Of a stretch of 45,740 nucleotides of DNA, positions 26,422-42,004 are shown piece after piece. The notes beneath the pieces are model-generated. The model was not told the DNA's origin. It was given only the letters and a program-made list of their open reading frames with translations, and searched no databases. How positions within the stretch are numbered: position 1 is the stretch's first letter; every line of letters starts with the position of its first letter. The stretch comes from an uncultured Candidatus Saccharimonadales bacterium (lineage in GTDB: Bacteria; Patescibacteriota; Saccharimonadia; UBA4664), in contig CAZSRA010000007.1 of assembly GCA_964609585.1 (NCBI GenBank), positions 1 to 45,740 of the forward strand, read 5' to 3'. A program made the position numbers and the translations under genes.

Positions 26422-26451
26422 AGTTGTCGACTTGATTTATTCTACGACAAA

Positions 26452-26514
26452 CTAAAACTCCGCCTCACGGTGGGGCATCATTGCCATCATCATATTGCGG
26501 GTATTGTTAGTCAT
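26452..26514 (-). CDS. Met-rich leader peptide 2, MTNNTRNMMMAMMPHREAEF (20 aa; alternative in-frame ATG at 26523)
   Basis: 5 Met in 6 codons; 3' end GCGGAGTTTTAGTTTGTCG pairs with CGACAACTACCTCCGC, which includes the terminator 5' arm. Confidence 0.85.
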   Translation of the reverse strand: MTNNTRNMMMAMMPHREAEF

Positions 26515-26521
26515 TGGCTTC

Positions 26522-26550
26522 ATTCTATGTTGCTAGCGGTATTTTATCAA
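26522..26550 (-). promoter_or_regulatory. Promoter of the Met operon, giving a leaderless or near-leaderless leader-peptide mRNA
   Basis: TTGATA-N17-TAGAAT, 7 nt upstream of ATG 26514. Confidence 0.7.
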
Positions 26551-26597
26551 GTGATCGATATCTAAAACCTCAACATCTTCAAGGCCAACTAAAAGTT

Positions 26598-26621
26598 CTG
26601 ACATTGTATATACAATGTCAG
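26598..26621. promoter_or_regulatory. Perfect 24-bp palindrome, probable AbrB/MazE autoregulatory operator
   Basis: CTGACATTGTATATACAATGTCAG directly upstream of the mazE remnant. Confidence 0.7.
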
Positions 26622-26638
26622 TAACCGGAGGACATAAA

Positions 26639-26923
26639 ACGAAAACTACAACCTAAGTAAAAATGTGGGGCAATAGCCTGGCGATCCGCATTCCTTCTCG
26701 GGTAGCCCGAGATCTAGGGCTAACAATCGATAGCCAGATAGAAATCGCCAGCGATGGCAGCACCGCCACCATAAAACGCGAAGAGAACCCCCGCCTATCC
26801 TTAGAAGAAATTAGTCAAACCCCTCGACATACTATCCGACCATTGCAAAAGAGTTCGAATGAAAGCCGTTCAAGGGCACCAAGACACTATTTTTTTATGC
26901 TTCCACTAGACATGAATTGTTGA
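26639..26923 (+). pseudogene. mazE: Decayed AbrB/MazE/SpoVT antitoxin gene; no toxin gene follows
   Basis: GGAGG-N7-ACG AAA ACT ACA ACC TAA GTA AAA ATG TGG GGC AAT AGC (start appears as ACG, in-frame TAA); WGNSLAIRIP..A..LGL motif; similarity lost after LSLEE. Confidence 0.7.
26839..26881 (+). repeat. Direct repeat copy 1 (43 bp)
   Basis: ACCATTGCA-AAAGAGTTCGAATGAAAGCCGTTCAAGGGCACCA; differs from copy 2 by 1 indel and 2 substitutions. Confidence 0.9.
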
Positions 26924-26987
26924 GCCGAACCGACGGTTGCTTCATTTTCTCGAACGAAAGGTCTGGCGGCTTAAGCTGCATCCCGAA

Positions 26988-27329
26988 TTAAAATAGTTTG
27001 CTTCCCAGCGGCACTTCGCGTTCGGGCTGCGACAGAACCACATTGCCATGTGCATCCGCGAAACCAAGCGTAAGGCTTTCTGATATGAACGGACCTATCT
27101 GCTTGGGCGGAAAGTTCACAACTCCCATCACGAGCCGCCCGATCAACTCTTCTTTTGTATAATGTTTGGTTATTTGAGCCGACGAGCGCTTTAAGCCAAT
27201 TTCAGAGCCGAAGTCGATCGTAAGTTTATAGGCTGGTTTTCTTGCTTGAGGAAAATCCTCAGCGGCAATAATTTTCCCGGTTCGAATATCTATTTGCTCA
27301 AAGTCTGCGTAAGTGATGGTATTGTTCAT
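26988..27329 (-). CDS. csaA: tRNA-binding protein CsaA/Trbp111 (homologous to the MetRS C-terminal domain)
   Basis: DFEQIDIRTGKII, KPAYKLTIDFG, SSAQITKHY, VVNFPPKQIGPFISESLTLG. Confidence 0.92.
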   Translation of the reverse strand: MNNTITYADFEQIDIRTGKIIAAEDFPQARKPAYKLTIDFGSEIGLKRSSAQITKHYTKEELIGRLVMGVVNFPPKQIGPFISESLTLGFADAHGNVVLSQPEREVPLGSKLF

Positions 27330-27458
27330 AGGCCAAGTATACTATCCGTGTTCGGAATGACAAGATTTGTCGTCAACATGACGATTAAGTGATATGATAA
27401 ACAACCGCCACATCTGTTATTGTCATTGCGGTATGATGTCGAAAAAAAGGACACCTCT

Positions 27459-28199
27459 ATGAAAATCAATGCCATTCTTCAACAATTAGGTTTTTCCGAT
27501 AACGAGACGGCAGTGTATTTGGCCGCTCTGGAAACCGGGCTATCCTCAGCACAAGCAATAGCAAAAAAGGCTGGAATCAAACGAACCACCACTTACTCAA
27601 TCCTAGAAAAGCTGGTAGCTCGAGGAGTGGTGGGGAAGTCTATTGCACAAGGTGCTGCTCGGTTTATGGTAGAGCCACCCGAGAAGCTCATCGCAATGAT
27701 TACAAATCTACACGAACGGCTCATCGGCGTCTTGCCGGAGCTTGAAGCGGTCTACAACGCTCACGAGTCGAAGCCAAAAATTGTGTTCTATGAAGGCAAA
27801 GAAGCTATCGCAAACGTTCTCGAGGACACACTAAGAGAAAAGCCAACTGAGGTTCTTGAGTGGAACACTGATCTATATTTTGACAAATTCTCTAAGAGTC
27901 ATGATTATATCGATCGTCGAGCTGGACTCGAGATAAAAGCCCGGCGAATGGCAGGCGAGGGCTCAATTTGGCACACCAAACATCGGGCTTACGATAGCTT
28001 GGAAAAGTCTAAAACTCGCATTGTATCAAAAGACTTGTTTTGGCCCGAGATTGAAGTAAACATCTATGGCAATAAAGTGGCGTTTCTCAATTATGCCGAT
28101 GATACCTCCCTCATCATCGAGAATCGAGCCATCGCTTCCGCGATGAGGCAAGCATATGAGCTCAGTTGGATGGGTGCTGGGACTATTGAGGTTCGCTAA
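27459..28199 (+). CDS. TrmB-family transcriptional regulator
   Basis: LGFSDNETAVYLAALETG, KRTTTYSILEKLVARG, KPKIVFYEGKE, EVNIYGNKVA; start reassigned to MKINAIL. Confidence 0.88.
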   Translation: MKINAILQQLGFSDNETAVYLAALETGLSSAQAIAKKAGIKRTTTYSILEKLVARGVVGKSIAQGAARFMVEPPEKLIAMITNLHERLIGVLPELEAVYNAHESKPKIVFYEGKEAIANVLEDTLREKPTEVLEWNTDLYFDKFSKSHDYIDRRAGLEIKARRMAGEGSIWHTKHRAYDSLEKSKTRIVSKDLFWPEIEVNIYGNKVAFLNYADDTSLIIENRAIASAMRQAYELSWMGAGTIEVR

Positions 28200-28227
28200 T
28201 CGGAAATCGAGCTCGCTATTTGGTCTA

Positions 28228-28271
28228 ACCATTGCACAAAGAGTTCGAGTGAAAGCCGTTCAAGGGCGCCA
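28228..28271 (+). repeat. Direct repeat copy 2 (44 bp)
   Basis: ACCATTGCACAAAGAGTTCGAGTGAAAGCCGTTCAAGGGCGCCA. Confidence 0.9.
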
Positions 28272-28292
28272 GTTTGCGAATTAAAATGTATC

Positions 28293-28319
28293 AAAATACC
28301 CCTATAAAAGGGGTATTTT
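28293..28319. terminator. Bidirectional intrinsic terminator
   Basis: AAAATACCCCT-N5-AGGGGTATTTT between convergent trmB and lnt-like genes. Confidence 0.8.
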
Positions 28320-28335
28320 CGTTTGGAAGCGACTT

Positions 28336-29781
28336 CTACTTACGCATTTGCCATCGGCGGATCCTATGGCCAATAACGATGATGGCAAATAGCCCACTTA
28401 CCCATGCAAACACATCGCCAATCTTGCCGTATGGCGTATCGCCATTACCGACAGGCACAGTTGCCACACGAGAGCTAAAGGTGATCGACGAGCTCATGTT
28501 CTGTGCGATTACCCGTCCACGGTTATCGCTGACCGTTTGTTCGCCCTTTCGTGCAGATCGTGCTACCGAAAAGCCATCCTCAACGCCACGCATAACTGCA
28601 ATACGGGCATGCATCCAGTGGTCAATGGTGAAATCCTCGGCCGGTACGTAGACAAGGCCAACATGCTGTCCAGCGACGTCACTACGGATCATGTCCGGAA
28701 AGTCCATATCTTTGCAAATCTCCACTGCTGCGCCATCGCCGAGTAATCCTGGGGTTGAGCCGGGCATCAAGCCACCTTCATCACTACTAGACTCGGCGGT
28801 TAGTAATCGCCGTTTTGCGTAGGTTTTGCTCGTGCCGTCAGGCTCAAACAATATTGCGATATTGTGCCCGCTCGTGTCGGATGTCTCGTCGTCAAATCCC
28901 GCCACAATGCTCAGATGGTCGGTGCGTGCTTCGTTGGCTAGGGGAGCGAGAGCGGCGTCTCGCCACGCGGGCTTAAGGATTGCTAACTTCTCGGGCAATA
29001 CGACCCTCGAAAGCCCCGAATGCGTCACAGCAACCGCATGAATGTCGGCCGCGTAGGTAGTTGTAAGGTTAATCCAAGTTGGTGCGCCGCTCGCCCGTAG
29101 TGAGGAGGTGTCTTTAGCGATCACGGCTACCTGCGTGGTCACCTGACCGGCACTGGTACTAAGTCTGAGGATCCCAAATCCAAGGTTAGCTAGGAACGCA
29201 GTGGCCACGACCATTAAAAGAGGCTTAGCGTACCTTCGATCGCGCAGTGATAATGCAATGCCGTTGGCAAGCAGACAAATGAGGAACGTAATGCTCCATA
29301 TACCAAAAAGGGAGGCACTTTGTATTAATACTGGAGCGCCCACCTGAGTGTAAGCGAATGATCCGACCGTTCCGTTAGGTGAAACTAGTGAAGTTATATA
29401 CTCGGTAGCAGTCCACAATGCAGGGAAGAATAGCAGTGCTGCTACCCAATTTGAGCGTTTATAGACCCATTTGGTGAGAAGCACTGCAATGACGGCCGTT
29501 ACGGCGAGACCCAAAACACCAAATGTGACCCCGATAGTTGCTGCACCCGTTCCGAGAAATGGTCGGATAAATTCGCTATTGCCAATGCCGAAAGCTAGAA
29601 ATGTTGCAAGTCCCACGCGCCATCCAGGTTGCCTGCTGTAGGCCAGCCACAGCAGAGGTAGTGGAGCAATCCATGCCAGAGCCCACAGGGAGCCAAGTCC
29701 CGTTGACGCATAGAAAGCCAGAGCACTCACTGCAGTGCAGCCGATCACTCCGGCCCAGTCTTTTTGTTTGAGGTTATTCAC
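28336..29781 (-). CDS. Apolipoprotein N-acyltransferase-like membrane protein with C-N hydrolase domain
   Basis: TM N-terminus, LAWIAPLPL, triad candidates VLPEK / YAKRRL / EICKD, MRGVEDG, SDNRG; GTG start after AAAGGAG. Confidence 0.8.
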   Translation of the reverse strand: MNNLKQKDWAGVIGCTAVSALAFYASTGLGSLWALAWIAPLPLLWLAYSRQPGWRVGLATFLAFGIGNSEFIRPFLGTGAATIGVTFGVLGLAVTAVIAVLLTKWVYKRSNWVAALLFFPALWTATEYITSLVSPNGTVGSFAYTQVGAPVLIQSASLFGIWSITFLICLLANGIALSLRDRRYAKPLLMVVATAFLANLGFGILRLSTSAGQVTTQVAVIAKDTSSLRASGAPTWINLTTTYAADIHAVAVTHSGLSRVVLPEKLAILKPAWRDAALAPLANEARTDHLSIVAGFDDETSDTSGHNIAILFEPDGTSKTYAKRRLLTAESSSDEGGLMPGSTPGLLGDGAAVEICKDMDFPDMIRSDVAGQHVGLVYVPAEDFTIDHWMHARIAVMRGVEDGFSVARSARKGEQTVSDNRGRVIAQNMSSSITFSSRVATVPVGNGDTPYGKIGDVFAWVSGLFAIIVIGHRIRRWQMRK

Positions 29782-29818
29782 TCTGCGCTCCTTTATCTTA
29801 CCGTATTCATCTGCGATA

Positions 29819-29834
29819 ATGTAACATGTTACAT
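29819..29834. promoter_or_regulatory. Perfect 16-bp palindrome, probable MarR operator
   Basis: ATGTAACATGTTACAT between the divergent lnt-like and marR genes. Confidence 0.65.
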
Positions 29835-29856
29835 ACTTAATGATCAATGGGTCTAA

Positions 29857-30291
29857 ATGGAAAATTTTGAGTTTATCTTCGAGCTAAACCGTGCGGTCAA
29901 TATCTTCAATGCGTACTATGACACTCGGATCGCGCCAGACACGGCGATAAGCCGAGCGCAATTCACGGTGTTGCTACTTATCAATCGTTTTCCTGGCATT
30001 ACGAAAGCAGAACTTGCACGCAAGCTTAGTTGTTCGCATGTCGCTATAGGCAGAGTCGTTAAAATTTTAGTTAGCGCAGGCTATGTGGATGAGTCATTGG
30101 ATCCACAAAACTCGCATCTTGTGCATCTTGAGCCGACCAAGTTAGGCAAAAGTATGGTCGAAAGTGTTACGCGTACGTTTAACCAGGTTTCTGCTTCTTT
30201 GTTTGCAGGCCTGGAGGATAAAGTTAAGCTTAGTCCATTACGTGAACAGCTTGTAGCATTTAGTGAGACGGTCTTAAGGCATAAATCCTGA
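29857..30291 (+). CDS. MarR-family transcriptional regulator
   Basis: ISRAQFTVLLLI, ITKAELARKL, GRVVKILVSAGYV, LEPTKLG. Confidence 0.85.
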   Translation: MENFEFIFELNRAVNIFNAYYDTRIAPDTAISRAQFTVLLLINRFPGITKAELARKLSCSHVAIGRVVKILVSAGYVDESLDPQNSHLVHLEPTKLGKSMVESVTRTFNQVSASLFAGLEDKVKLSPLREQLVAFSETVLRHKS

Positions 30292-30364
30292 TCAATCCAC
30301 CGTTGGTGCCATCAATTCCTACAGTATGCCGTCGAACCTACCGATGTTGTAATAAAATATTTGC

Positions 30365-30387
30365 TATATACCCCTAGGGGGTATATA
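30365..30387. promoter_or_regulatory. CsoR-type operator
   Basis: TATATACCCC-TAG-GGGGTATATA immediately upstream of csoR. Confidence 0.85.
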
Positions 30388-30395
30388 TATGAAAT

Positions 30396-30722
30396 ATGAT
30401 TTCCAACGTTAAAAAGCGTACAATTCACCGCTCCAAGATCATCGAAGGTCAAATAAAGGGCCTGCAAAAGATGATCGACAACGAGGCCTATTGCATGTAT
30501 ATACTCACACAAAGCCTAGCCATTCAAAAGTCGCTTGCATCGCTAGACAAGCTCATCCTAGAGAACCATATACGTACTCACATCGTCGAGATGATGAGTT
30601 CGGGCGACGAGGGAAAGCAAGACAAAGCGCTCGCGGAACTGCTCGAACTGTACAAACTTCATAACATTAAGGGTCGGTCGGCAGATAGTGTTCCCGCGTC
30701 CATCAATAAAATGAATGTGTAG
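30396..30722 (+). CDS. csoR: CsoR/RcnR-family metal-sensing repressor
   Basis: IEGQIKGLQKMIDNEAYC..ILTQ, ILENHIRTH (second Cys position is His). Confidence 0.9.
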   Translation: MISNVKKRTIHRSKIIEGQIKGLQKMIDNEAYCMYILTQSLAIQKSLASLDKLILENHIRTHIVEMMSSGDEGKQDKALAELLELYKLHNIKGRSADSVPASINKMNV

Positions 30723-30748
30723 CTAAAATAGCTAAGGAGGGTAAAATC

Positions 30749-32743
30749 TTGAAACCAGTAAATCACGATGAACACGTCGACCACGATAAACACGCTGGAC
30801 ACGACCCCAACATGTTTAAGCAAAAGTTCTGGCTAAGCCTTGCGCTTACCATTCCCACGCTTTTATTCTCTGATACCGTCCAAGGCTGGTTTGGCTTGCA
30901 CTGGATATTCTCCGGCAGCCGCTATATTCCGGCTGTTTTTGGCACAATTATTTTCTTCTACGGTGGGTTAGTATTTCTAAAAAGCGCCAGAGTCGAGCTA
31001 GAGGCTCGCCTGCCCGGCATGATGACGCTCATCTCGATGGCCATTTCGGTAGCCTTTGGTTACAGTATCGCCGTTACCCTCAAACTCGTGAATGGTATGG
31101 ATTTCTGGTGGGAGCTTGCGACGCTAGTTACGATTATGCTCCTTGGGCATTGGCTCGAAATGGCTTCGGTGCGAAACGCGCAGGGCGCGCTAAAAGAACT
31201 CGCTAAGCTATTACCAGATGAAGTTGAGCTTGTGGTCGCTGGTGGTACAAAAAAAGTAGCGCTAGCCGAATTAAAAATTGGCGACCTGGTGCTCATTCGT
31301 CCCGGCGTCCAAATCCCAGCCGATGGTGAAGTAGTGAAGGGCGACTCAGACGTCAATGAATCAATGCTCACTGGCGAGTCAAAGCCAGTTAAGAAAACGG
31401 CAGAAGCACCAGTCATCGGCGGCACTATCAATGGTAGCGGCTCGTTAACCATCAGAATTACAAAGATCGGTGACGACACAGCCCTAGCTGGCATCATGAA
31501 GCTTGTAGCCCAGGCACAAAGTAGTAAGTCAAAAACACAAATTGTGGCAGATAAGGCCGCCTTCTATCTGACATTCGTAGCGCTTGGCGCAGCGGCGATC
31601 ACATGGGTAGCCTGGGCCGTGGCTGGGCAGACTGCGGGCTTCATCTTGGAGCGGATCGTTACCGTGCTAGTCATCGCTTGCCCGCATGCACTCGGCCTAG
31701 CCGTTCCCCTTGTGACCGCCATTTCCACGACACTCGCCGCCAAAAATGGTTTGCTTATTCGGCAGCGTATGGCGCTTGAAGCTGCCCGTAATATTGATGT
31801 GATACTGTTTGATAAGACAGGTACCCTCACAACCGGAAAGCAAGGGGTCGTAGATATTATTGCGAGTGGTGATAAAAACCAACTACTCGGGCTCGCTGCT
31901 GCCGTAGAGAATGAATCCGAGCACCCGATTGCTACGGCAATCGTGAGTTCTGCAAAAAAGCAGAACATAAAAATTCCACAAGCTACGGGCTTCAGCTCCC
32001 TCGCCGGACGCGGAGCCGGGGCCACCATTGCCGGTAACACCGTGCATGTAGGCAGTCCGCGCCTCATTGAGGAATTGAAAGCCGCAATTTCAGATGATTT
32101 GGCCACAGCATCGGCCCAGGCATCGAAGGAGGGTAAGACCGTGGTGTATGTTGTCCAAGATAAAACAGTCCACGGGGCAATCATGCTAGCCGACGTTATC
32201 CGGGAAGAGTCCAAAGAAGCGGTCTCTATCCTGCATGCTATGGGTAAACGCGTTGCCATGCTTACCGGCGATAGCAAGGGCGTAGCTGCATGGGTGGCGA
32301 AAGAAATTGGGATCGATGAGTATTTTGCTGAAGTATTGCCCGAGAACAAAGCCGATACCGTCAAAAAACTTCAGGCCGACGGCAGCAACGTTGCCATGGT
32401 CGGAGATGGTGTTAACGATGCTCCAGCTCTCACGCAGGCTGATGTCGGTATTGCGATTGGAGCTGGTACGGATGTGGCGATTGAGTCAGCGGGTATCGTA
32501 CTAGCATCGAGTGACCCACGAGGGGTGCCGAAAATCGTCAAACTGTCTAAAGCCACGTACCGTAAGATGATACAAAATCTTGCATGGGCCACTGGCTACA
32601 ATGCCCTGGCTATACCCCTCGCAGCCGGCGCGACAGCTGCGCTTGGTTTCGTCTTGTCACCAGCCTTTGGTGCAGTACTGATGTCGCTTTCAACGATTGT
32701 AGTAGCAATTAACGCCCAATTTTTGCGCAAACTAAAGCTGTAA
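30749..32743 (+). CDS. copB: Copper-translocating P1B-type ATPase (CopB-like, CPH motif)
   Basis: His-rich N-terminus, TGES, ACPHALGLA, DKTGTLT, SEHP, MVGDGVNDAPAL, YN and MSLS TM motifs. Confidence 0.93.
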   Translation: MKPVNHDEHVDHDKHAGHDPNMFKQKFWLSLALTIPTLLFSDTVQGWFGLHWIFSGSRYIPAVFGTIIFFYGGLVFLKSARVELEARLPGMMTLISMAISVAFGYSIAVTLKLVNGMDFWWELATLVTIMLLGHWLEMASVRNAQGALKELAKLLPDEVELVVAGGTKKVALAELKIGDLVLIRPGVQIPADGEVVKGDSDVNESMLTGESKPVKKTAEAPVIGGTINGSGSLTIRITKIGDDTALAGIMKLVAQAQSSKSKTQIVADKAAFYLTFVALGAAAITWVAWAVAGQTAGFILERIVTVLVIACPHALGLAVPLVTAISTTLAAKNGLLIRQRMALEAARNIDVILFDKTGTLTTGKQGVVDIIASGDKNQLLGLAAAVENESEHPIATAIVSSAKKQNIKIPQATGFSSLAGRGAGATIAGNTVHVGSPRLIEELKAAISDDLATASAQASKEGKTVVYVVQDKTVHGAIMLADVIREESKEAVSILHAMGKRVAMLTGDSKGVAAWVAKEIGIDEYFAEVLPENKADTVKKLQADGSNVAMVGDGVNDAPALTQADVGIAIGAGTDVAIESAGIVLASSDPRGVPKIVKLSKATYRKMIQNLAWATGYNALAIPLAAGATAALGFVLSPAFGAVLMSLSTIVVAINAQFLRKLKL

Positions 32744-32755: not shown

Positions 32756-34132
32756 TTAAGCCACAAACGACGACAGCAGCGCCACCGCAAACACGCCCAT
32801 CACGACAAACGCAGTCCACAGCCCAAGCTTCGACCACATCCCGCTTTTATGCTCGCCCATAATGTCGCTACGGCTAGAAATTCTTGCAATCAGGTAAATG
32901 AGCGGTACCGCAGCAATGCCGTTAAACACTGCCGTGAGCACCAACGCCTTCATGGGGTCGAGTCCCACAAAATTAAACATGAGGCCCACGAGCGTGCCAA
33001 AAATAATCACAAAGTAGAATCCGCGAGCTTGCTTAAATTTTCGAAACAGCCCCTCGCGCCAGTTAAACGTTTCCGCCACAGCATACGATGACGAACCCGC
33101 GAGCACCGGAATAGCCTGGAGTCCGACACCAATAATCCCCACCGAAAAGATCAGCTTGGCCAAAAATCCCGCATGCGGAAAACTGTGAACCAATGGCTCA
33201 AGCGCCCTGGCAGCATCAGCGGCTGTTGCAATATTTGTAATGCCAGCCTGGTTGAGCACGACCGCACCCACCACGATGATGAACCACGCGCTCACATTAG
33301 AAAACAGCATACCCATGGCCGTGTCGATTCGCAGCCGCCGCAGATATGGCTTCGTGAGTCGTGGAATACCACCTTTTTGAGCCAACCGGTGTTCGGCAAT
33401 TTCATCCTCCACCACATTGCTCGTCTCCCAAAAGAATAGATATGGCGAGATCGTCGTCCCAAAAATGGCCACAATTATGTAGAGAAAACTCTTGCTCCAC
33501 TCAACGTGCGGCACAAATGTGGCTTTTGCTACTGCTCCCCACGGCACCCCAATTAAAAATGCCGTAATGATATACGCAAACAATGCTATAGCTAGCCATT
33601 TCAAAAGCCGAATATAGCTTTTGTAGGATACAAACACTTCAAGCAGCAAAATTATCAGCGAGAATCCGACAGCGAGTACGGCAAACGGTATCCCTGGGAC
33701 CAGTAAGCGCGTACTAGCCGCCATGGCCCCAATGTCTGAGCCGATGTTGAAAGTATTTGCTGCCACCACCAGCGCCACCACCGGGAACAGTATTTTTTTG
33801 GAATAATGCTCGCGCACTGCCGCTGCCAACCCTTTGCCGGTCACCGCGCCTACCCGCATGCAGGCCTCTTGCACTGCCGTCATGAGAGGCAGGGTAAAGA
33901 GCATCGTCCACGGCATGTGGAGGCCAAACTGGGCGCCGGCCTGTGAGTATGTCGCAATACCGGAGGGGTCGTCATCGGCCGCCCCTGTAACGATTCCTGG
34001 GCCAAGAATTCGCAAAAATCGGCCAAAGCTCTTTTGTTTTGCTCGTCGCCGGGCCGCTCGGGTATGCTCCGCCTCGGCTAGGGCTTCATCGGGCAGTTCA
34101 ACATTAATAGGTTCATTAGATGTACTACTCAT
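32756..34132 (-). CDS. NRAMP-like divalent metal cation transporter
   Basis: LGPGIVTGAADDDPSGIATYSQAGA, GTTISPYLFFW, 11-12 TM segments; start reassigned to MSSTSNEP. Confidence 0.9.
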   Translation of the reverse strand: MSSTSNEPINVELPDEALAEAEHTRAARRRAKQKSFGRFLRILGPGIVTGAADDDPSGIATYSQAGAQFGLHMPWTMLFTLPLMTAVQEACMRVGAVTGKGLAAAVREHYSKKILFPVVALVVAANTFNIGSDIGAMAASTRLLVPGIPFAVLAVGFSLIILLLEVFVSYKSYIRLLKWLAIALFAYIITAFLIGVPWGAVAKATFVPHVEWSKSFLYIIVAIFGTTISPYLFFWETSNVVEDEIAEHRLAQKGGIPRLTKPYLRRLRIDTAMGMLFSNVSAWFIIVVGAVVLNQAGITNIATAADAARALEPLVHSFPHAGFLAKLIFSVGIIGVGLQAIPVLAGSSSYAVAETFNWREGLFRKFKQARGFYFVIIFGTLVGLMFNFVGLDPMKALVLTAVFNGIAAVPLIYLIARISSRSDIMGEHKSGMWSKLGLWTAFVVMGVFAVALLSSFVA

Positions 34133-34201: not shown

Positions 34202-34217
34202 TGTGACGAAGCTCACA
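34202..34217. promoter_or_regulatory. CRP-type box
   Basis: TGTGA-CGAAGC-TCACA between the divergent NRAMP and GyrI-like genes. Confidence 0.7.
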
Positions 34218-34263: not shown

Positions 34264-34854
34264 ATGAAAACTACCCTTGAAATAGTCGAAGTTCCCCCAC
34301 AAAACTATGCTTGTATCGACGGCACCGGCAACCCGAATGACAATCTGGATTTTCAAGCCGCTATCGAGGCGCTATACGATATAGGCTACGTTCTAAAAGC
34401 GACCCGCAAGAAAGCAGGGCTCGAGTCAGATTACAAAATCGGCCCCCTTGAGGCCTTATGGCTATCAGACCAAGAGGATTTTGATTGGAGCAACGACACA
34501 AAGACTCCTGCCTGGCGCTGGGTGCTTATGATTTCCCAACCAGCTTTTATCGCAAAGTCTGAATTCACAGCAGCCATCTACCAACTTTCCCTCAAAAAGC
34601 CCAACCCGGCTATAGCCAAGCTCTATCTGAAACAGCTCGATGAAGGCACGGTAGTTCAGATTATGCATGTCGGTCCATGCAGTGCGGAGGGCCCGAACAT
34701 TAAGGCCATGCACGCTTATGCCGAGGAGCAGGGCTACCAATTGACTGGTCAGCATCACGAAATCTATCTCAGCGATCCCCGTCGAGCAAAGCCCGAAAAG
34801 CTCCGCACACTCCTGCGCCATCCCGTCCGACCTATCAACAAACACGCAAAGTAG
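34264..34854 (+). CDS. GyrI-like small-molecule-binding domain protein
   Basis: IDGTGNPN, PLEALW, WRWVLMISQP, VQIMHVGP, HHEIYLSDPRR..PEKLRTLLRHP. Confidence 0.88.
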   Translation: MKTTLEIVEVPPQNYACIDGTGNPNDNLDFQAAIEALYDIGYVLKATRKKAGLESDYKIGPLEALWLSDQEDFDWSNDTKTPAWRWVLMISQPAFIAKSEFTAAIYQLSLKKPNPAIAKLYLKQLDEGTVVQIMHVGPCSAEGPNIKAMHAYAEEQGYQLTGQHHEIYLSDPRRAKPEKLRTLLRHPVRPINKHAK

Positions 34855-34899: not shown

Positions 34900-35241
34900 A
34901 TGATAACTGTAAAAGCCAAAGGCGATTACAAACTCATCGAAACCAAATCGCAGGTCAAAATCCTCTACTTAGACCATCAAGCTTATGCTTGGGTCTGGGC
35001 CGAAAATATTGGCGAAATTCTCGTTACCACCCATCGACCGCACAAAATAGATCATATCCTAGCTGTTGGGCGTTACCGCTTATACAATGTCGAAACAGAG
35101 CCCAAATACACCGATCTGCAGCACTTGGAGCTTCTCGTCGGGAAAGGGGAGTGGCAAGGTTATTTACTACTCACCGGTCTGCCCACGGACCAAAAAATGC
35201 GTAGCCGTATCATCCCAACGGCTGAGCTCCTTACGCGATGA
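34900..35241 (+). CDS. Hypothetical protein
   Basis: SD AAGGAG, compact 113-aa ORF; no family recognised with certainty. Confidence 0.75.
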   Translation: MITVKAKGDYKLIETKSQVKILYLDHQAYAWVWAENIGEILVTTHRPHKIDHILAVGRYRLYNVETEPKYTDLQHLELLVGKGEWQGYLLLTGLPTDQKMRSRIIPTAELLTR

Positions 35242-35243
35242 GC

Positions 35244-35259
35244 TGTGATCCGAGTCACT
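35244..35259. promoter_or_regulatory. CRP-type box
   Basis: TGTGA-TCCGAG-TCACT; centre is 41.5 bp upstream of a start inferred from -10 TTTAAT (35281-35286). Confidence 0.65.
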
Positions 35260-35308
35260 GTTAAAACCGAGGCACAAAGCTTTAATTAGCCTTAAATAGG
35301 GGACAAAA

Positions 35309-35476
35309 ATGATTCGAACTAAACCCAGTCGCAAACACCATCATGGTCTACTGACGGCACAAGAATTCCAAAAATTACTCCGAGCCCAAGCGCCGTCTGC
35401 ACCAAAAGTCATTCTCGAAAACCTAAGATACCGACTTGATCGCACTCATTTCCTGGAGCGCAAGAGATTACCATGA
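35309..35476 (+). CDS. Small basic protein (55 aa; below the ORF-track cutoff)
   Basis: AGGGGA SD; MIRTKPSRKHHHGLLTAQEFQKLLRAQ...RKRLP; stop overlaps the next ATG (ATGA). Confidence 0.6.
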   Translation: MIRTKPSRKHHHGLLTAQEFQKLLRAQAPSAPKVILENLRYRLDRTHFLERKRLP

Positions 35477-35943
35477 AGACCGTACTTCATCGTAGCCCCA
35501 CAGCCTTGGCGCTGCGTATTTTTCTTTTGCTGTTTCTCATTGATACAGCTTATGCGCTGCTCATCATGCTGTTTCTGAGCATAAATCCGTCCCCAAATTA
35601 CTACACCGGCCTCCTGATCCTGCTCTGGGCCACGCACACGGCCAAGTATATTGCCACGACCTTCCTGCTGCTCCGTCTGCTACTTGTGTGGCTCAGTGAG
35701 TTTTATGCCATCGAAAACGGGCATCTAACAATCCATTCGGGCATCTACGCAATATCGGAAAAAGTTTATGATCTCGCTCAGCTAAAACAAGTGAAGGTTC
35801 ACCAAGACTGGTTCGGTCGACGCTTCAATTTCGGCGATCTTGCCCTTCGGATATCGAGCTCAGGCAGCCACGAAACCATCGAACTACACGACATCGTTAA
35901 CCCACAAATCAGCGAGCGGCAGTTTATAGCCGAGTTCAAATGA
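35473..35943 (+). CDS. Membrane protein with bacterial PH domain
   Basis: Two TM helices, then YAIENGHLTIHSGI...IKVHQDWFGRRFNFGDL pattern. Confidence 0.8.
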   Translation: MKTVLHRSPTALALRIFLLLFLIDTAYALLIMLFLSINPSPNYYTGLLILLWATHTAKYIATTFLLLRLLLVWLSEFYAIENGHLTIHSGIYAISEKVYDLAQLKQVKVHQDWFGRRFNFGDLALRISSSGSHETIELHDIVNPQISERQFIAEFK

Positions 35944-35978
35944 CTGCCCTCCACGCTAAGTATTGGTATAGTGAAGAT

Positions 35979-36626
35979 ATGGATCAAGTCGTTTCGCAAA
36001 AAATCGAGGAGTTCTTCGAATCGTACCCCGGCCGCAATTATCGCAAAGGACAGATGCTTGTTCACGCTCACGACGATCCAGCCTATATTTTTCACTTGCT
36101 CGAAGGCAGAGTGAAGCAATATGACATTTCGTATCGAGGTGATGAGATTGTGCTAAACATTTTTAAACCCCCAGCCTTCTTTCCGATGTCATACGCTATG
36201 AACAAAACCCCCAATGTCTACTTCTACGAAGCCGAAACCGACATAGAACTAAAGCAAGCTCCCGTCGAAGACACCATTAATTTTCTACGATCAAACGCCG
36301 ACGTTACCTACGATCTTCTGGGCCGTGTATACAGAGGCACCGACGGTCTGCTGGGCCGGCTAGCTCACCTCATGGCTGGGACGGCCCGCAGCCGCGTGCT
36401 ATATGAACTTCTCATTGAGGTTCGCCGCTTCGGCGTGTCGCGTGGCAAGGGCGTGGCTATTGTGCTTACCGAATCCGATATTGCAGCCCATGCTGGTCTC
36501 GCTCGGGAGACCGTCAGTCGCGAAATCCACAAACTCAAAGATGAAGGACTCATTTCGCTCATCAAAAATGAAATCTGGGTGAACGATATAGAAAAACTGG
36601 CGACTAAAGTTAGTCGTGAGCTTTAG
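35979..36626 (+). CDS. Crp/Fnr-family transcriptional regulator with CRP-type recognition helix
   Basis: cNMP-binding barrel (FHLLEGRVK), LTESDIAAHAGLARETVSREIHKL (RE..SR); start reassigned to MDQVV. Confidence 0.93.
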   Translation: MDQVVSQKIEEFFESYPGRNYRKGQMLVHAHDDPAYIFHLLEGRVKQYDISYRGDEIVLNIFKPPAFFPMSYAMNKTPNVYFYEAETDIELKQAPVEDTINFLRSNADVTYDLLGRVYRGTDGLLGRLAHLMAGTARSRVLYELLIEVRRFGVSRGKGVAIVLTESDIAAHAGLARETVSREIHKLKDEGLISLIKNEIWVNDIEKLATKVSREL

Positions 36627-37050
36627 ATAGTCGCCATACGCATATCGCAAGTATCGTAAACGCCGCTAGACACAAAGTGGCCTGGCTAATAAATCCAAAG
36701 AGATTAAAAAACTTAGTGGTACAAACCACACTTACGCTACAAACTTTCGGCGCAATGTGAATGACATTCCAATGCACCAGCTGCTGGAAAAATGCTACCG
36801 GCAGTCCAATAGATACGAACGGGGTTATATAGCGCCATACCCCATGGTCCCGTGTGACCGCCCCCACACAAAGAATGAGAAAAACCCCAAACATCAGCAT
36901 GCGGTTGAGCCAACACAAACTAGCTGCAGGATGATGCAAAATCTCAATAAAATAAACACTAGCGGCCGAGGCCATAAGGGCGGTGGCCCAAGCTATATAA
37001 AATGATACAGCCAGCGGGCGTTGATATGGTTGAGTGGAGTTTTTAGTCAT
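36610..37050 (-). CDS. DsbB/BdbC-like disulfide bond formation protein (first CxxC cysteine absent)
   Basis: SVYFIEIL..PAASLCWLNRMLMF, SIGLPVAFFQ, CSVSVVC, FISQATLCLAAF. Confidence 0.75.
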   Translation of the reverse strand: MTKNSTQPYQRPLAVSFYIAWATALMASAASVYFIEILHHPAASLCWLNRMLMFGVFLILCVGAVTRDHGVWRYITPFVSIGLPVAFFQQLVHWNVIHIAPKVCSVSVVCTTKFFNLFGFISQATLCLAAFTILAICVWRLSKAHD

Positions 37051-37084
37051 GTCACTAACATAAGCACGGTCCAGAAGCACCGGC

Positions 37085-37100
37085 TGTGAGGCGGATCACA
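37085..37100. promoter_or_regulatory. CRP-type box shared by the divergent dsbB-like and heliorhodopsin promoters
   Basis: Perfect TGTGA-GGCGGA-TCACA; centre 41.5 bp from ATG 37134 and 42.5 bp from ATG 37050. Confidence 0.82.
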
Positions 37101-37133
37101 TAAAACACTTATGCTTATGTTATATTGCTCACT

Positions 37134-37901
37134 ATGAGCAAACCCATATCTACGACAAGTCTTCGCAAACTCAATGCCTTCATGGCGATCCTGCATGCTG
37201 CCCAAGCCATCGCTATTTTGCTTTTAGCAAAAGACTTTAAGCTCCCTCTCACCATTGCGTATTTGCAGTTTAACCCTGCTACCCGCGGTCTAGAGACTCA
37301 CATTCACACGCTGGGCCAAGTACCCCTCGCCGCGCTGATAGTCGCATTCTTTGCCCTCTCGGCTCTAGCGCATCTTTTTGTAGCCACCGTGTATCGTCGT
37401 CGATACGAGGCCGATTTAGCCCGTAGTATCAACTATATTCGCTGGATCGAATATTCTCTGTCGGCAAGCACCATGATGGTCGCGATCGCCATGCTTGTTG
37501 GCGTGTACGACGCGCCGTCTCTGGGTATGATCTTCGTCCTCACTGCCGGCATGAACCACATGGGGCTCATCATGGAAGTGCACAACCAAACTACGAAGCG
37601 CACAAATTGGCTCAGTTTTCGAATTGGAACCGTGCTCGGGGTAATGCCTTGGCTCGTTATCCTGGCCTACTTCCTCTCAAGCGCCGCCTATGGCTCTACG
37701 CCGCCCACCTTCGTCTACTGGATTTTCGTCTCCATTTTCATCTTTTTCAACTGCTTCGCCATCAACATGGTCCTGCAATACAAAAAAGTAGGTCCTTGGC
37801 GCGATTATCTCTACGGCGAGCGGGCTTACATTATCTTAAGTTTGGTTGCCAAATCGCTTCTAGCCTGGCAAGTCTTTGCCGGCACTCTCCGGCCAAATTA
37901 G
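37134..37901 (+). CDS. heR: Heliorhodopsin
   Basis: LHAAQAI, AHLF, NYIRWIEYSLSASTM, YGERAYIILSLVAKSLLAWQVF (retinal-binding Lys), 7 TM. Confidence 0.96.
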   Translation: MSKPISTTSLRKLNAFMAILHAAQAIAILLLAKDFKLPLTIAYLQFNPATRGLETHIHTLGQVPLAALIVAFFALSALAHLFVATVYRRRYEADLARSINYIRWIEYSLSASTMMVAIAMLVGVYDAPSLGMIFVLTAGMNHMGLIMEVHNQTTKRTNWLSFRIGTVLGVMPWLVILAYFLSSAAYGSTPPTFVYWIFVSIFIFFNCFAINMVLQYKKVGPWRDYLYGERAYIILSLVAKSLLAWQVFAGTLRPN

Positions 37902-37909
37902 CTTAAGAG

Positions 37910-38398
37910 CTAATTAGGATCTTTTTTCTCGGCGGGAGACACTCGGTCCATAACTATTGGCGCCAAGTAGTAAGCAGCCGCCCCTCCGGCCACCGCAAAA
38001 ACCAAGCTACCCAATACATCAATCGGTGAATGCACGTGTGCCAAAATACGAGCCACTCCGACCACCGCCGCCAGCGCAAATAGCCCCATCCCTAAGCGCT
38101 TAGACGCAAAGAAAATCGTAACTGCAATCGTTGCCGCAAACACCGTATGGTCCGACGGAAAGCCATTATCAGCCGCATGAGGTAGTAATGGCGTAAGATG
38201 GTGCGTTACAAACGGCCGCGGATCGTAAAACAATGCACCCCCGATCTTCGTCAGGGCAAAGGCCACTATCGCCGTTACCGCCCCTACAACTGCAATTCGG
38301 ATTTTTTGCAATTTCGGTAAGGTTAGCCAATAAACAAGCGCGATCAGGCCGACAAAGAACACCAGATATTTAGCGCAGAGAATAATAAGTAGATTCAT
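37910..38398 (-). CDS. PAP2-family phosphatase (undecaprenyl-pyrophosphate phosphatase BcrC-like)
   Basis: YDPRPF, GFPSDHT, ARILAHVHSPIDVLG; start reassigned to MNLLIILC. Confidence 0.9.
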   Translation of the reverse strand: MNLLIILCAKYLVFFVGLIALVYWLTLPKLQKIRIAVVGAVTAIVAFALTKIGGALFYDPRPFVTHHLTPLLPHAADNGFPSDHTVFAATIAVTIFFASKRLGMGLFALAAVVGVARILAHVHSPIDVLGSLVFAVAGGAAAYYLAPIVMDRVSPAEKKDPN

Positions 38399-38501
38399 TC
38401 CCTTAAGTATAGCATCGCCGCTCATAGTCCTCATAGCAAAAAGCTTATGATCTAGACCCCTCGGATGGTATATTAGTAGCAATTGATTACGAGGCACGAA
38501 T

Positions 38502-39038
38502 ATGGCGGCAGGCGAAGGTGGTCCAAGCGGCCCCGAGAATGACTTAAATACCGGAGAGATCGTAGGCTCTCTAGACGAGGCGCCCTCAGAAGAAAGACAT
38601 AGAGCAGTGGAGGCGGCAGGGCAAATCAGTAGCTCCCCAGAAGCCAGTCAAGCAGCCGCAGCAGATGCCGCTCAAAGAAGGGCTGAAGTTGAGCAGCGAG
38701 CCTCAGATAATGCCGAGGACGCCAGACGTTTGATAACAGAAGCTATACCGAACGCGCAGTCTGACCCAGCAACTCTCCCAGCTCAGCCAGAGTACCCAAA
38801 TCCAACGCGCGAAACTGCACCTATGCCATCGAACCCTGATATGCCACCAGTCGCCGCGAGCAATAGCTCTGACACCTGGCTAACAAGAATGTCCGATAAA
38901 ATAAAAGGTTCATGGATCGCAATGGGAATCAACCGCAAGGCCAGAAAGACGGAGAACCAGCGATACAAAGAAGCTCTATATTCTCGTAATCTCCCGCTCG
39001 CCGACGCTGAGCACCCAAAGGATCTCGTTCAAAAATAA
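38502..39038 (+). CDS. Hypothetical low-complexity protein
   Basis: 178-aa Ala/Glu/Pro-rich ORF, GAGG upstream; no family recognised. Confidence 0.55.
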   Translation: MAAGEGGPSGPENDLNTGEIVGSLDEAPSEERHRAVEAAGQISSSPEASQAAAADAAQRRAEVEQRASDNAEDARRLITEAIPNAQSDPATLPAQPEYPNPTRETAPMPSNPDMPPVAASNSSDTWLTRMSDKIKGSWIAMGINRKARKTENQRYKEALYSRNLPLADAEHPKDLVQK

Positions 39039-39058
39039 CGTTAGTTCAAAATAAGAGC

Positions 39059-39085
39059 AGCCCCCCGCGAACATCGCGGGGGGCT
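39059..39085. terminator. GC-rich hairpin terminator between convergent genes
   Basis: AGCCCCCCGCGA-ACA-TCGCGGGGGGCT. Confidence 0.75.
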
Positions 39086-39151
39086 TTGGGCTGGGGGACT
39101 TGCCACCACATCCGACGACCAGACCGAGGTGGGTCGAAGGCCGAGACGAGG

Positions 39152-39355
39152 TCAGCGACTCAGAAGCTGATCCGAGAAGTCGTGTACTTCGAGAGCCACT
39201 TTGGCCAGGCCGTCGTTGTACTTCTTGCCGTGGTGGGCGCAGAACAGTAGCTCGCCGCCTTCGAGGACGACTCGGATGTAGGCAGAGGCGCCGCACCGGT
39301 CGCAGCGGTCAACGGCCTTCAGGGGCTCGGCCTCGATTTGGGTGGAATTCGTCAC
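39152..39355 (-). CDS. Small Cys/His (probable Zn-binding) protein of an actinobacterial family (DUF7455-like)
   Basis: DRCDRCGASAYIRVVLEGGELLFCAHHGKK; GTG start after GAAGGAGAGTACC; family recalled from memory. Confidence 0.8.
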   Translation of the reverse strand: MTNSTQIEAEPLKAVDRCDRCGASAYIRVVLEGGELLFCAHHGKKYNDGLAKVALEVHDFSDQLLSR

Positions 39356-39417
39356 GGTACTCTCCTTCGGGGCTCGCACGGTAGCTGCAGGCGGCTGCTT
39401 GCAACAAGGTCCTCGGG

Positions 39418-39705
39418 TCAGGCGCCGATGCCGTCAGCCAGCACGGCATCGATCTGCGCTTTCACGCGATCTGCATCCTCGCCGGCTTTCGCCGAACTGG
39501 GGTTTAGCGAGGGGATCTCATCGATCGGCTCAGGCTCTCCACCTCCGCCACTCCGCTGGGCCCGCGGCTGGACGTGTCGTTGCGGTCTGGCGGGCGTTTT
39601 GGGTTGAGCGTGAGCTGCCAGCGTTACCACGATCAATCCCTCCAAAGCTAGTACTCGGACATTCAGGCCGTACGGGGCCAGCCCTTTTTGCAAAAGACTA
39701 GTCAT
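39418..39705 (-). CDS. Hypothetical protein
   Basis: 95-aa ORF with one hydrophobic stretch, co-oriented with the downstream Zn-finger gene. Confidence 0.45.
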   Translation of the reverse strand: MTSLLQKGLAPYGLNVRVLALEGLIVVTLAAHAQPKTPARPQRHVQPRAQRSGGGGEPEPIDEIPSLNPSSAKAGEDADRVKAQIDAVLADGIGA

Positions 39706-39927
39706 CTAGGGCTTAGAACAAAAAATCGACGCACCTATTCACAGCATTACGCTAGGAATAGAGTCGTCGTTCATTCGAACTTGCCCTTTTCTTTCCACAC
39801 AAGACTAAGCCTACAGTCTTTTTAGAAGAACAAGCTTAGTGCTTAATTACAATATAAATCTAATACAGTTGGAAGTCAAACTGTAATATAAGCCAATGAA
39901 TCTCAAAGTATAAACGAATCCGGACGC

Positions 39928-39959
39928 CTCCAAGGGCGGGCGAGTGCCCGTCCTTGGAG
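39928..39959. terminator. Strong 14-bp hairpin downstream of the anti-sigma-like gene
   Basis: CTCCAAGGGCGGGC-GAGT-GCCCGTCCTTGGAG (one G-U); no clear U-tract. Confidence 0.6.
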
Positions 39960-39991
39960 TGAACTCATCGTGCCTATGGCGGGGCACGACT

Positions 39992-40558
39992 TCAGCGTTG
40001 GTCGGTTGGCATCCGTACAGTGCCCTTGACGAATGTCCAGAGCCACCAGCGCCTGATAGAGAAGCTTGTACACAGCGCGTGCGCGATTTCCAGACCACGG
40101 CCGCGCACGGGCAAACTCTCGATCTTCACCTCAACGCCATCGACCTCAACGAACCCAAGCCCTTCGAGCCCCTCAAGGTCAGCGTCGGGGTCTTCGACCG
40201 TAGTCGCACTCGAGTGACTATGTAGGGAGCTGGATGCGTTTCGAACCTTGAAGATAACACTGCGCCCTCGCCGCCGAATGGTCAGTTTCACGGGAGTACC
40301 TCTCCTGTGACGGCCAAGCTTCATAGTGGCGTCAGTGCCGTTGGCTACAACCTCCGAGATGAGCAGAACAAGATCACCTAGCAATCGCTTGGCATCAGCC
40401 GGCGTTCCAAATGGATCTTCGACGTTCCATCCATCTAGTACGCTCTCGGCGCACCCACGCGAGACTCTCGCACTCGCATGCTGAGGGGCCAGCTTGATCA
40501 TGATCTTGCGACTACTCTGGGGGCGGTGCGGGGGTCTCAAGACTGGTCCCTGCATCAT
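39992..40558 (-). CDS. HATPase_c-type ATP-binding protein (RsbW/anti-sigma kinase-like, actinobacterial style)
   Basis: LAPQHASARVSRG, LVLLISEVVANG, VIFKVRN, GRGLEIAHAL; SD GAGGTG. Confidence 0.7.
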   Translation of the reverse strand: MMQGPVLRPPHRPQSSRKIMIKLAPQHASARVSRGCAESVLDGWNVEDPFGTPADAKRLLGDLVLLISEVVANGTDATMKLGRHRRGTPVKLTIRRRGRSVIFKVRNASSSLHSHSSATTVEDPDADLEGLEGLGFVEVDGVEVKIESLPVRGRGLEIAHALCTSFSIRRWWLWTFVKGTVRMPTDQR

Positions 40559-40723
40559 TTCACCTCATCCCTAGGTAAACCGGGTTGCTTGTAGTGTCTT
40601 CACTACACGAGTACACATAATCCCACTTTGGGCAAACAAAGTCAAATTGATCGCCAGTCAAAAAAACACCTTATTCGCGCTAACGCTTTGCCCCAGGCTC
40701 GCTACGTGCTAACCTAGTACTCT

Positions 40724-42004
40724 ATGGAAACGAAGATCACCCAAACCACCGATACCGAAGTTCAGTTCACCGTTACCCTCGATGAAAATGAACTCAAGCA
40801 CATAAAGGCTGAAGTATTTGACCACCTCCGCGGTCGTGTCAAAGCTGCCGGCTTCCGTCCTGGCAAAGCCCCAGACATGATCGTTGAACGCGAGCTCGGC
40901 TCACCGGCCGTCCAAAACGACGTCATCGACCACGCCATCCAACACACCTATACTCAGGCTGTAAAAAAACTGAACCTCCAAATCGTTGCCTCTCCAAAGG
41001 TATCGCTTGAGAAATTCGTCCCCTACACTCAACTTGAGTACAAAGTAGTAGCCGAACTCATGCCCAAAGTAAAGCTTGCCGACTACGCCAAAATGCGCCT
41101 CAAGCGCCCAGATACGAAGGTTGAGGCTGCCGAAATCGATGCCGCTATTGATGATCTCCGTCGACGGGAGGCTACCAAACTCGAGAGCGAGCAGCCCGCG
41201 AAAAATGGCGATGAAGTAACCTTCGACTTTGACGGCACCAAGGACGGTAAAGCCGTTTCCGGCGCTTCGGCCAAAGGCCATGTCCTCACCCTCGGCTCAG
41301 GTCAGTTTATTCCTGGTTTTGAAGATGAAATTGTTGGTCTTACCGCCGGCGACGAAAAAACCTTCGACATCCGTTTCCCCAAAAACTATCACGAAAAAAC
41401 CCTCGCCGACCAAGTTGTTACGTTCAAAATTAAGCTCAACGCCGTAACCGACATCGTCCTCCCGGAGTTAGCGGCTGATTTCGTCGCTAAAGTAAGCCCC
41501 TTTAAGACCGTCAAAGAGCTAAAGGCCGACATTGAAGCTAAGCTTGCTGGCGAAAAAAAGGAAGCCGCCTCGCGTCAGTACGAGCAAGAAGTGCTCGATA
41601 AGCTTCTAAAGGACAGCGAGTTTAAGGTCCCCGAGGCGCTAGTAACCCAGCAGCTTGAACGCATGCGCGGCGAACTCGAGCAAAATCTAGCCTCCAGTGG
41701 TCTCGATCTTCCCAAATACCTTGATCTCGCTGGCCGCACCCAGGAACAAATGGACGCCGAAATGCGGCCCGAAGCCGAGCGCCGTGTTGGTCTTGCCATG
41801 ATTCTCACCGAAGTCGCAACTGCTGAAAAACTCAGTATCACCCCAGACGAGCTCAATGCTGAAATCAATCGTCTCAAGCAAGATTACCCCGATCCCGGGA
41901 CGCAGGCCGAACTGGACAATCCCACAACTCGCGAAGAAATCTACAACCACCTCATGGCCTCGCGTGTCATCGCCAAGCTCGTCGCATACGCCGAAGCCAG
42001 ATAG
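40724..42004 (+). CDS. tig: Trigger factor
   Basis: GFRPGKAP, FKBP domain (VTFDFDG, LGSGQFIPGFEDEIVG, FPKNYH). Confidence 0.97.
   Translation: METKITQTTDTEVQFTVTLDENELKHIKAEVFDHLRGRVKAAGFRPGKAPDMIVERELGSPAVQNDVIDHAIQHTYTQAVKKLNLQIVASPKVSLEKFVPYTQLEYKVVAELMPKVKLADYAKMRLKRPDTKVEAAEIDAAIDDLRRREATKLESEQPAKNGDEVTFDFDGTKDGKAVSGASAKGHVLTLGSGQFIPGFEDEIVGLTAGDEKTFDIRFPKNYHEKTLADQVVTFKIKLNAVTDIVLPELAADFVAKVSPFKTVKELKADIEAKLAGEKKEAASRQYEQEVLDKLLKDSEFKVPEALVTQQLERMRGELEQNLASSGLDLPKYLDLAGRTQEQMDAEMRPEAERRVGLAMILTEVATAEKLSITPDELNAEINRLKQDYPDPGTQAELDNPTTREEIYNHLMASRVIAKLVAYAEAR

Follow-up and report, generated by a model that had tools for sequence, protein, structure and literature searches.

Divergent genes and a shared CRP-type palindrome

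A 45,740-nt stretch of DNA from an uncultured Candidatus Saccharimonadales bacterium (GenBank assembly GCA_964609585.1, contig CAZSRA010000007.1; hereafter the window) contains a heliorhodopsin (HeR) gene (37134..37901, + strand) that is oriented divergently from a dsbB-like gene (36610..37050, − strand), next to which lies the gene for a Crp/Fnr-family regulator of 228 amino acids (35940..36626, + strand; crp below). The 83-nt region between the dsbB-like and HeR genes contains a palindrome, TGTGAGGCGGATCACA (37085..37100), with 0 mismatches to the CRP-type sequence TGTGA-N6-TCACA, which we treat as a shared operator and refer to as the box. A preliminary description of this DNA had proposed that one perfect CRP box at class II spacing serves both genes, such that HeR would be co-activated with a membrane redox protein by the neighboring Crp/Fnr sensor.

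The half-sites of the operator, TGTGA (37085-37089) and TCACA (37096-37100), place its center at 37092.5, so that 41.5 nt separate it from the ATG of HeR (37134) and 42.5 nt from that of the dsbB-like gene (37050). On the HeR side we identified an extended −10 element, TGTTATATT (TGtTATATT; 37118..37126, + strand), whose hexamer starts 20 nt off the box edge and which ends 7 nt short of the ATG. On the other side, a −10 hexamer of the dsbB-like gene, TATGTT (37057..37062, − strand), lies 22 nt off the box edge and 6 nt short of the ATG. The HeR mRNA is predicted to be leaderless or to have a 1-nt leader, and the dsbB-like mRNA is predicted to be leaderless. A scan with the sigma-70 consensus found no −35/−10 pair in the dsbB-like/HeR intergenic region. 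The box, both −10 elements, the 41.5- and 42.5-nt spacings and the poor −35 sequences given in the preliminary description were all confirmed when the sequence was read again. The palindrome at 37085-37100 is, however, not the only perfect box: a second one is present at 34202-34217, and a box with one mismatch at 35244-35259.

The spacings of 41.5 and 42.5 nt match the class II position on both sides, as had been claimed, but these distances run to the ATGs and not to mapped start sites, so that the box counts as class II only if both mRNAs are leaderless. If the −10 elements are as predicted, at gaps of 20 and 22 nt, and the transcripts start leaderless, the center of the box would lie at about −40.5 to −42.5.

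The box as an element of a local regulon

Two perfect boxes were found in the window compared with 0.03 expected from shuffled sequences, and 0 of 100 shuffles reached two. Boxes with at most one mismatch numbered four, against 0.91 expected, and all four fell within 34.2-37.1 kb, beside the regulator gene. The same motif was counted in 71 kb of DNA around eight Crp orthologues from other Saccharibacteria. As background for the expectation we used 1.08 Mb of Saccharibacterial DNA without a Crp orthologue, in which two perfect boxes occurred. Around the orthologues there were 5 perfect boxes versus 0.13 expected (P 3e-7), an enrichment of about 38-fold around orthologues of the window regulator, and 13 boxes with at most one mismatch versus 1.45 expected (P 5e-9). 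All 9 of the distinct perfect boxes that we found were intergenic, in genomes that are about 90% coding. On these counts chance is excluded, and we take the box for a genuine, conserved promoter element belonging to a local Crp-family regulon.

To measure the distance between boxes and promoter elements, we took 19 boxes that had no more than one mismatch, which gave 38 flanks, from the window, seven Crp-orthologue loci and the perfect-box loci L036 and L053 (L numbers denote comparison loci throughout). A TAnnnT hexamer was located 20-22 nt from the box edge in 13 of the 38 flanks, mostly at exactly 21 nt, compared with 4.2% in controls (P 2e-9). With a gap of 21 nt and a transcription start 7 nt past the hexamer, the center of the box would be at −41.5, which is the class II position for activators of the CRP, FNR and NtcA types. 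Judged by these spacings, class II geometry holds across the regulon. The distance from hexamer to hexamer across the box was 58 nt in both the window and locus L170.

The dsbB-like promoter as the conserved target

The dsbB-like gene encodes a DsbB/BdbC-family paralogue of 146 amino acids whose match to PF02600 (E 0.01, 16.7 bits) is below the 22.1 cut-off. Its orthologue in L170, which is 71% identical, scored 26.8 bits and passed the cut-off, and a DsbB paralogue in L169 scored 40.3 bits. In loop 1 of the DsbB-like protein, the first extracytoplasmic loop, Ala replaces the first Cys of the redox-active CxxC to give AxxC (PAASLCW in the window, PAAPLCW in L170); the protein retains its second pair of Cys residues. 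A canonical DsbB with PCNLCW (CxxC) is encoded directly after crp in L169, which also encodes an AxxC paralogue. The DsbB-family genes of these relatives are at L170:7623-8063, L171:1453-1884, and L169:4090-4524 and 7712-8134. By sequence, the window gene encodes a paralogue within the DsbB family, and its chemistry is uncertain. The earlier label dsbB-like is supported by way of the 71%-identical orthologue, but with AxxC in loop 1 the label of a membrane redox protein is uncertain.

Relatives for the comparison of boxes were contigs chosen for a close orthologue of Crp, at 73-79% identity. All 4 of the genomes compared (the window, L170, L171 and L169) have a box upstream of the dsbB-like gene, its center lying 41.5-42.5 nt from the ATG. 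L170 is syntenic with the window, having crp, a convergent dsbB-like gene of 146 codons, and then tig, clpP and an MFS gene. In this locus the ATG of the dsbB-like gene lies 41.5 nt from a perfect box (8097-8112), on whose opposite side a phosphoribosyltransferase gene takes the place of HeR. Hexamers were found at 21 nt on both sides of this box, TATGCT toward the dsbB-like gene and TATAAT toward the phosphoribosyltransferase gene. L171 and L169 each have a box with one mismatch, at 41.5 and 42.5 nt, respectively, from the ATG of the dsbB-like gene. On the other side, L171 has a gene for a KGG protein further downstream, and the box of L169 faces a P-type ATPase gene.

A four-way alignment of the regions upstream of the dsbB-like genes revealed conservation of only the box (GTGA-N6-TCAC), a TAnnnT-like −10 hexamer and the ATG. 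The hexamer TATGTT of the window aligned with TATGCT in L170 and TACGCT in L171, and the rest of the intergenic region was unconserved, a clear phylogenetic footprint. By this comparison, the dsbB-like promoter is the ancestral and conserved target of the box, and the gene opposite to it is interchangeable.

The segment between crp and tig was also found to be hypervariable among syntenic relatives (window 36626-40724; L170:7639-11010; L167:3516-5476). HeR and a PAP2 gene were present in this segment only in the window, a phosphoribosyltransferase gene in L170 and a cupin gene in L167.

The adjoining Crp/Fnr-family regulator

The regulator consists of an N-terminal cNMP_binding domain (PF00027, E 7.6e-11) followed by a C-terminal winged helix of the HTH_Crp_2 type (PF13545, E 9.2e-14), and PF00325 was also matched (E 3e-6). 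Its recognition helix, ARETVSR, has the pattern R-E-x-x-x-R, by which CRP reads TGTGA, and RETV(S/N)R is kept in the seven Saccharibacterial orthologues that were aligned. In an alignment with E. coli CRP, the helix RETVGR of that protein was matched to the helix of the regulator. The CRP-type RE..SR helix that had been claimed for this protein was thus present, as RETVSR. The subfamily is widespread in Saccharibacteria: over 1,000 homologues matched with E values of 1e-15 or better.

In the same alignment the cAMP contacts (G71/E72, R82/S83, T127/S128) were not conserved, and the aligned segment, F-PMSYAMNKTPNVYFYEA, contained no Arg-Ser/Thr-Ala. We rejected identity with cAMP-CRP because the phosphate-binding Arg/Ser are absent and the match to CAP reached only E about 1e-4. 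E. coli FNR has four Cys ligands, comprising an N-terminal cluster and C122. Identity with FNR was likewise rejected, since the 228-residue translation contains no cysteine, which makes a four-Cys [4Fe-4S] cluster impossible. Characterized proteins were only distant relatives, the nearest PDB match being NtcA (E 1.6e-12). From the sequence we infer that the effector of the regulator is a ligand other than cAMP.

The start of crp overlaps the stop of a gene with a bPH_2 domain (35473-35943), and this gene and orf55 (together 35309..35943, + strand) are upstream of crp in one operon. The string of orf, bPH_2 gene and crp was also found in L172 and L173. Upstream of the operon lies a box with one mismatch, TGTGATCCGAGTCACT (35244..35259), a candidate autoregulation site. 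Equivalent boxes precede the crp operon in L172 (2173-2188, with TACACT 21 nt away) and in L170, where a perfect box (6335-6350) stands before pspC-orf113-crp. Because boxes precede the operon of crp itself in the window, L172 and L170, the regulator probably autoregulates its expression.

Small proteins with bPH_2 or bPH_3 domains and a conserved protein of 113 amino acids that matches no Pfam family recurred beside this Crp subfamily in varying arrangements, sometimes together with HeR (L108:3142-5765; L009:4001-6432; window 34900-36626).

The heliorhodopsin gene and its core promoter

The HeR gene encodes 255 amino acids, including the SxxxK retinal motif, and matched PF18761 with E 3.5e-95 (318 bits) along the entire profile, positions 1 to 242. 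S236 and K240, the latter being the Schiff-base lysine in TM7, were invariant in an alignment of 46 sequences. Homologues with 63-83% identity covered residues 1-255 and placed the window in Saccharimonadia, a lineage of the Candidate Phyla Radiation (CPR). The database HeR call P0001 (239 amino acids) begins at an internal ATG at 37182, 16 codons short of the start at 37134 that the homologues support. Leaderless starts probably mislead gene callers that rely on ribosome-binding sites in this Saccharibacterial HeR group.

The HeR promoters that we examined came from a non-redundant set of 105 loci (from loci L001-L166) in which HeR was at least 56% identical. TAnnnT was found 5-8 nt before the HeR ATG in 60 of the 105 loci, in 53 of them at exactly 6 nt, and 41 of the 60 also had the TGn extension, giving the consensus gCTTATGcTATAaT-N6-ATG (a TRTGnTATAAT extended −10). 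A Shine-Dalgarno motif was found in 0 of these 60 loci. Among control ATGs the hexamer occurred in 7.3% and the extended form in 1.0%. These results indicate that in Saccharibacteria HeR mRNA is, as a rule, leaderless and made from an extended −10 promoter. The dsbB-like genes and an Nramp gene (see below) likewise have a hexamer separated from the ATG by 6 nt. HeR genes of more distant lineages in the set mostly carry a Shine-Dalgarno motif instead.

HeR relatives that have no box at all keep the extended −10 leaderless core and also lack a −35 element, so HeR transcription does not in general require this activator. Because these box-less relatives are without a −35 too, its absence at HeR is a trait of the family and does not point to a promoter in need of activation.

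Other boxes and genes in the window

The second perfect box, TGTGACGAAGCTCACA (34202..34217), is in the intergenic region between divergent genes for an Nramp metal transporter (32756..34132, − strand) and a GyrI-like small-molecule-binding protein (34264..34854, + strand). The probable ATG of the Nramp gene at 34132 is preceded by TGGACA-17-TATGCT-6 nt, from which a leaderless transcript is predicted, and this promoter-like site would put the 34202 box near −77.5. A further site with one mismatch at 36853 is inside the dsbB-like coding region and was set aside as probably incidental.

Genes that adjoin boxes in the window and in its relatives encode Nramp, GyrI-like, cupin, PspC, class II ribonucleotide reductase, PNPOx-like, P-type ATPase, KGG and DsbB-like proteins, which suggests a regulon theme of stress, metal and redox functions. 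Such a theme is compatible with the idea that CPR heliorhodopsins are concerned with oxidative stress (PMC9166423, PMC8612252).

A separate part of the window, 24000-32000, has a G+C content of 0.46-0.50, compared with 0.51-0.61 in the first 24 kb, and a tRNA-Leu gene is located at 23419-23504. The genes of this region include those for Cys/Met metabolism, DUF2000, regulators of the TrmB and MarR families, an Lnt-like protein and a P-type ATPase.

Heliorhodopsin as a possible second target of the box

The sequence of the box, its enrichment, its conservation and its geometry were read directly from the DNA. The explanation that we consider probable is that the adjoining regulator binds the palindrome and activates, rather than represses, both divergent promoters in class II fashion, the dsbB-like gene being the ancestral target and HeR a lineage-specific recruit. 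One bound dimer would overlap the −35 position of two back-to-back promoters, neither of which has a −35 element. Class II activation of both would produce a leaderless dsbB-like (AxxC) mRNA leftward and a leaderless HeR mRNA rightward, from the starts predicted here. The small local regulon would also take in the operon of the regulator itself through the box at 35244 and the Nramp/GyrI-like pair through the box at 34202. Since HeR sits in a variable slot and has its own extended −10, the effect of the box on HeR may be to modulate a promoter that is otherwise self-sufficient.

What the preliminary description had proposed for HeR, namely co-activation with the dsbB-like gene by a Crp/Fnr sensor, agrees with the geometry, the box and the adjoining regulator, but HeR occupies a variable slot and a survey of other HeR loci was negative. 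The exact mirror-image spacing favors real co-regulation of HeR in the window, as does the right-hand side of the box in L170, which was apparently used too. A role for HeR as a lineage-specific second target of the box, with co-activation, is thus plausible from the sequence.

The survey included 80 HeR loci of GTDB species representatives, 80 metagenome loci (where no HeR exceeded 68% identity) and 7 loci fetched by exact protein. The preliminary description had suggested looking for CRP boxes upstream of CPR heliorhodopsins, and no box near −41.5 was found at HeR in about 165 other Saccharibacterial/CPR loci. The closest HeR relatives for which DNA was available (73-79% identity; L081, L166, L163, L164 and L174) were likewise without a box near −41.5. 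In L009 crp directly follows HeR, yet no box within two mismatches was found upstream of HeR. Further points weigh in the same direction, against control of both promoters by the adjoining regulator. The gaps in the window are 20 and 22 nt and not the modal 21 nt, and neither flank of the 34202 box carries TAnnnT at 18-24 nt. In addition, TGn extended −10 promoters, such as that of HeR, usually need no activator.

With regard to the wider set of loci, only one box with at most one mismatch occurred within 250 nt of HeR (L012, at 137.5 nt) compared with 0.84 expected, which is chance level. A Crp orthologue was found within 4-5 kb of HeR in 3 of 166 loci versus about 1% estimated by chance, assuming one crp per genome of about 1 Mb. 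HeR-Crp adjacency is thus close to chance and not convincing alone, and it argues against a general HeR-Crp link. Two loci that place HeR in a string with a box do favor co-regulation in the window. In L108, where HeR and Crp are 59% and 52% identical to those of the window, crp is followed by a PNPOx-like gene and a perfect box, 42.5 nt from the ATG of that gene, with a bPH_3 gene and HeR on the other side of the box. In L053 a perfect box with TATGCT at 21 nt heads a same-strand string of genes of 45 and 86 codons followed by HeR. The box survey covered loci with DNA available, which leaves out the contigs with the closest HeR proteins, P0002 (83% identical) and P0003 (82%). The P0003 contig has crp, a gap of 518 nt and HeR, as in the window, a layout that also favors co-regulation.

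In L048 a perfect box (L048:3035-3050) with TATACT at 21 nt was found upstream of a gene for a class II (B12-type) ribonucleotide reductase. It lies just downstream of a gene for a Crp homologue (39% identical to the window regulator, RETVNR helix), and this crp-like gene is in turn divergent from a gene for a small membrane protein, which is followed by HeR.

The alternative that survives best is that the box serves the dsbB-like promoter only, with HeR being constitutive and its 41.5-nt spacing a by-product of its arrival in a slot that is compact and hypervariable. Four genomes keep the box with the dsbB-like gene while the opposite gene varies, the HeR core promoter is found box-less in relatives, and the survey upstream of HeR remained at chance, all of which would be accounted for. 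However, the unrelated right-hand gene in L170 has a perfect TATAAT exactly 21 nt off the box, suggesting two-way use, and the 58-nt spacing of the hexamers is identical in that locus and the window. It is also unlikely that a dimer over the −35 position would have no effect on a bound RNA polymerase. We regard this alternative as a real one but rather unlikely.

A repressive role, with the regulator covering the −35 position at one promoter or at both, or a dual role appears quite unlikely. Repressors usually bind across the −10 element or the start of transcription, whereas the preference for a 21-nt gap across the regulon, with the center near −41.5, is the signature of a class II activator. 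On the other hand, the extended −10 of HeR should fire alone, so that a protein at −35 could hinder it, and according to PMC5499769, M. tuberculosis Cmr acts as a dual Crp/Fnr regulator from one site. It is more improbable still that another Crp/Fnr paralogue, or an unrelated protein, encoded elsewhere binds the box. The analysis covered 45.7 kb of the genome and many family members read TGTGA-N6-TCACA, which also counts against assigning the box to the adjoining protein, but the roughly 38-fold enrichment was specific to DNA around orthologues of this regulator and included sites before its own operon. Finally, a chance palindrome, or a small hairpin or terminator, deserves next to no weight in spite of the short 5 + 5 palindrome, given 0.03 expected per window and conservation in four genomes; the terminator reading in particular is rejected because there is no T-run and the divergent flanking genes leave nothing to terminate.

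Discussion

Activation of both promoters by the adjoining regulator would resemble class II activation by E. coli CRP in several respects. The core sequence TGTGA-N6-TCACA, the R-E-x-x-x-R helix, a site placed over the −35 position about 41.5 nt from the predicted start, the absence of a −35 element and the use of one site for two promoters are common to both. Unlike CRP, the window protein is distant (phmmer E about 1e-4) and does not keep the cAMP contacts E72, R82, S83, T127 and S128, both transcripts are predicted to be leaderless, and the host is a reduced-genome CPR bacterium. Activation of divergent promoters by one dimer of CRP has an experimental precedent (El-Robh and Busby 2002, as cited in PMC3105977).

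The regulator can also be compared with NtcA, the cyanobacterial sensor of 2-oxoglutarate. NtcA belongs to the Crp/Fnr family, typically activates from −41.5, the class II position, and responds to a metabolite that is not cAMP. It differs in its site (GTA-N8-TAC) and helix (R-V-T-V-T-R), compared with RETVSR and a CRP-type box in the window, and the similarity is weak. Actinobacterial regulators of the Crp/GlxR type are found in hosts of the monoderm type, bind TGTGA-N6-TCACA boxes, often have leaderless targets, autoregulate and bind cAMP. Unlike those proteins, which keep the phosphate-binding cassette, the window regulator is without it.

HeR function has been inferred from genomic context before, from a glutamine synthetase operon (PMC9529153) and from histidine kinases and oxidative-stress genes (PMC8612252, PMC9166423). 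Our analysis shares that approach and differs in that the link to Crp is sporadic. In the literature that we searched we found no Crp-type operator or regulator beside HeR, no Saccharibacterial Crp regulon and nothing relevant on leaderless transcripts in CPR bacteria.

We tentatively suggest that HeR may have been recruited in some Saccharibacteria into a compact stress, metal and redox regulon of a ligand-sensing, non-cAMP Crp-family regulator, either through a shared site as in the window or through box-headed strings as in L108 and L053; we consider this less likely than not. Such a sporadic link cannot alone explain HeR biology in general. The regulatory design itself is well known, and the finding is of moderate interest as an entry point into CPR gene regulation and into HeR physiology in this lineage. 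How CPR/Patescibacteria regulate transcription has hardly been explored, and the physiological role of HeR has yet to be settled. This locus brings together a candidate regulator, a well-supported cis element and a conserved geometry of box, 21 nt, −10 hexamer and leaderless ATG. If HeR is indeed a target, the effector of the regulator would reveal when cells need HeR, providing a rare experimental handle on the function of heliorhodopsins in CPR bacteria.

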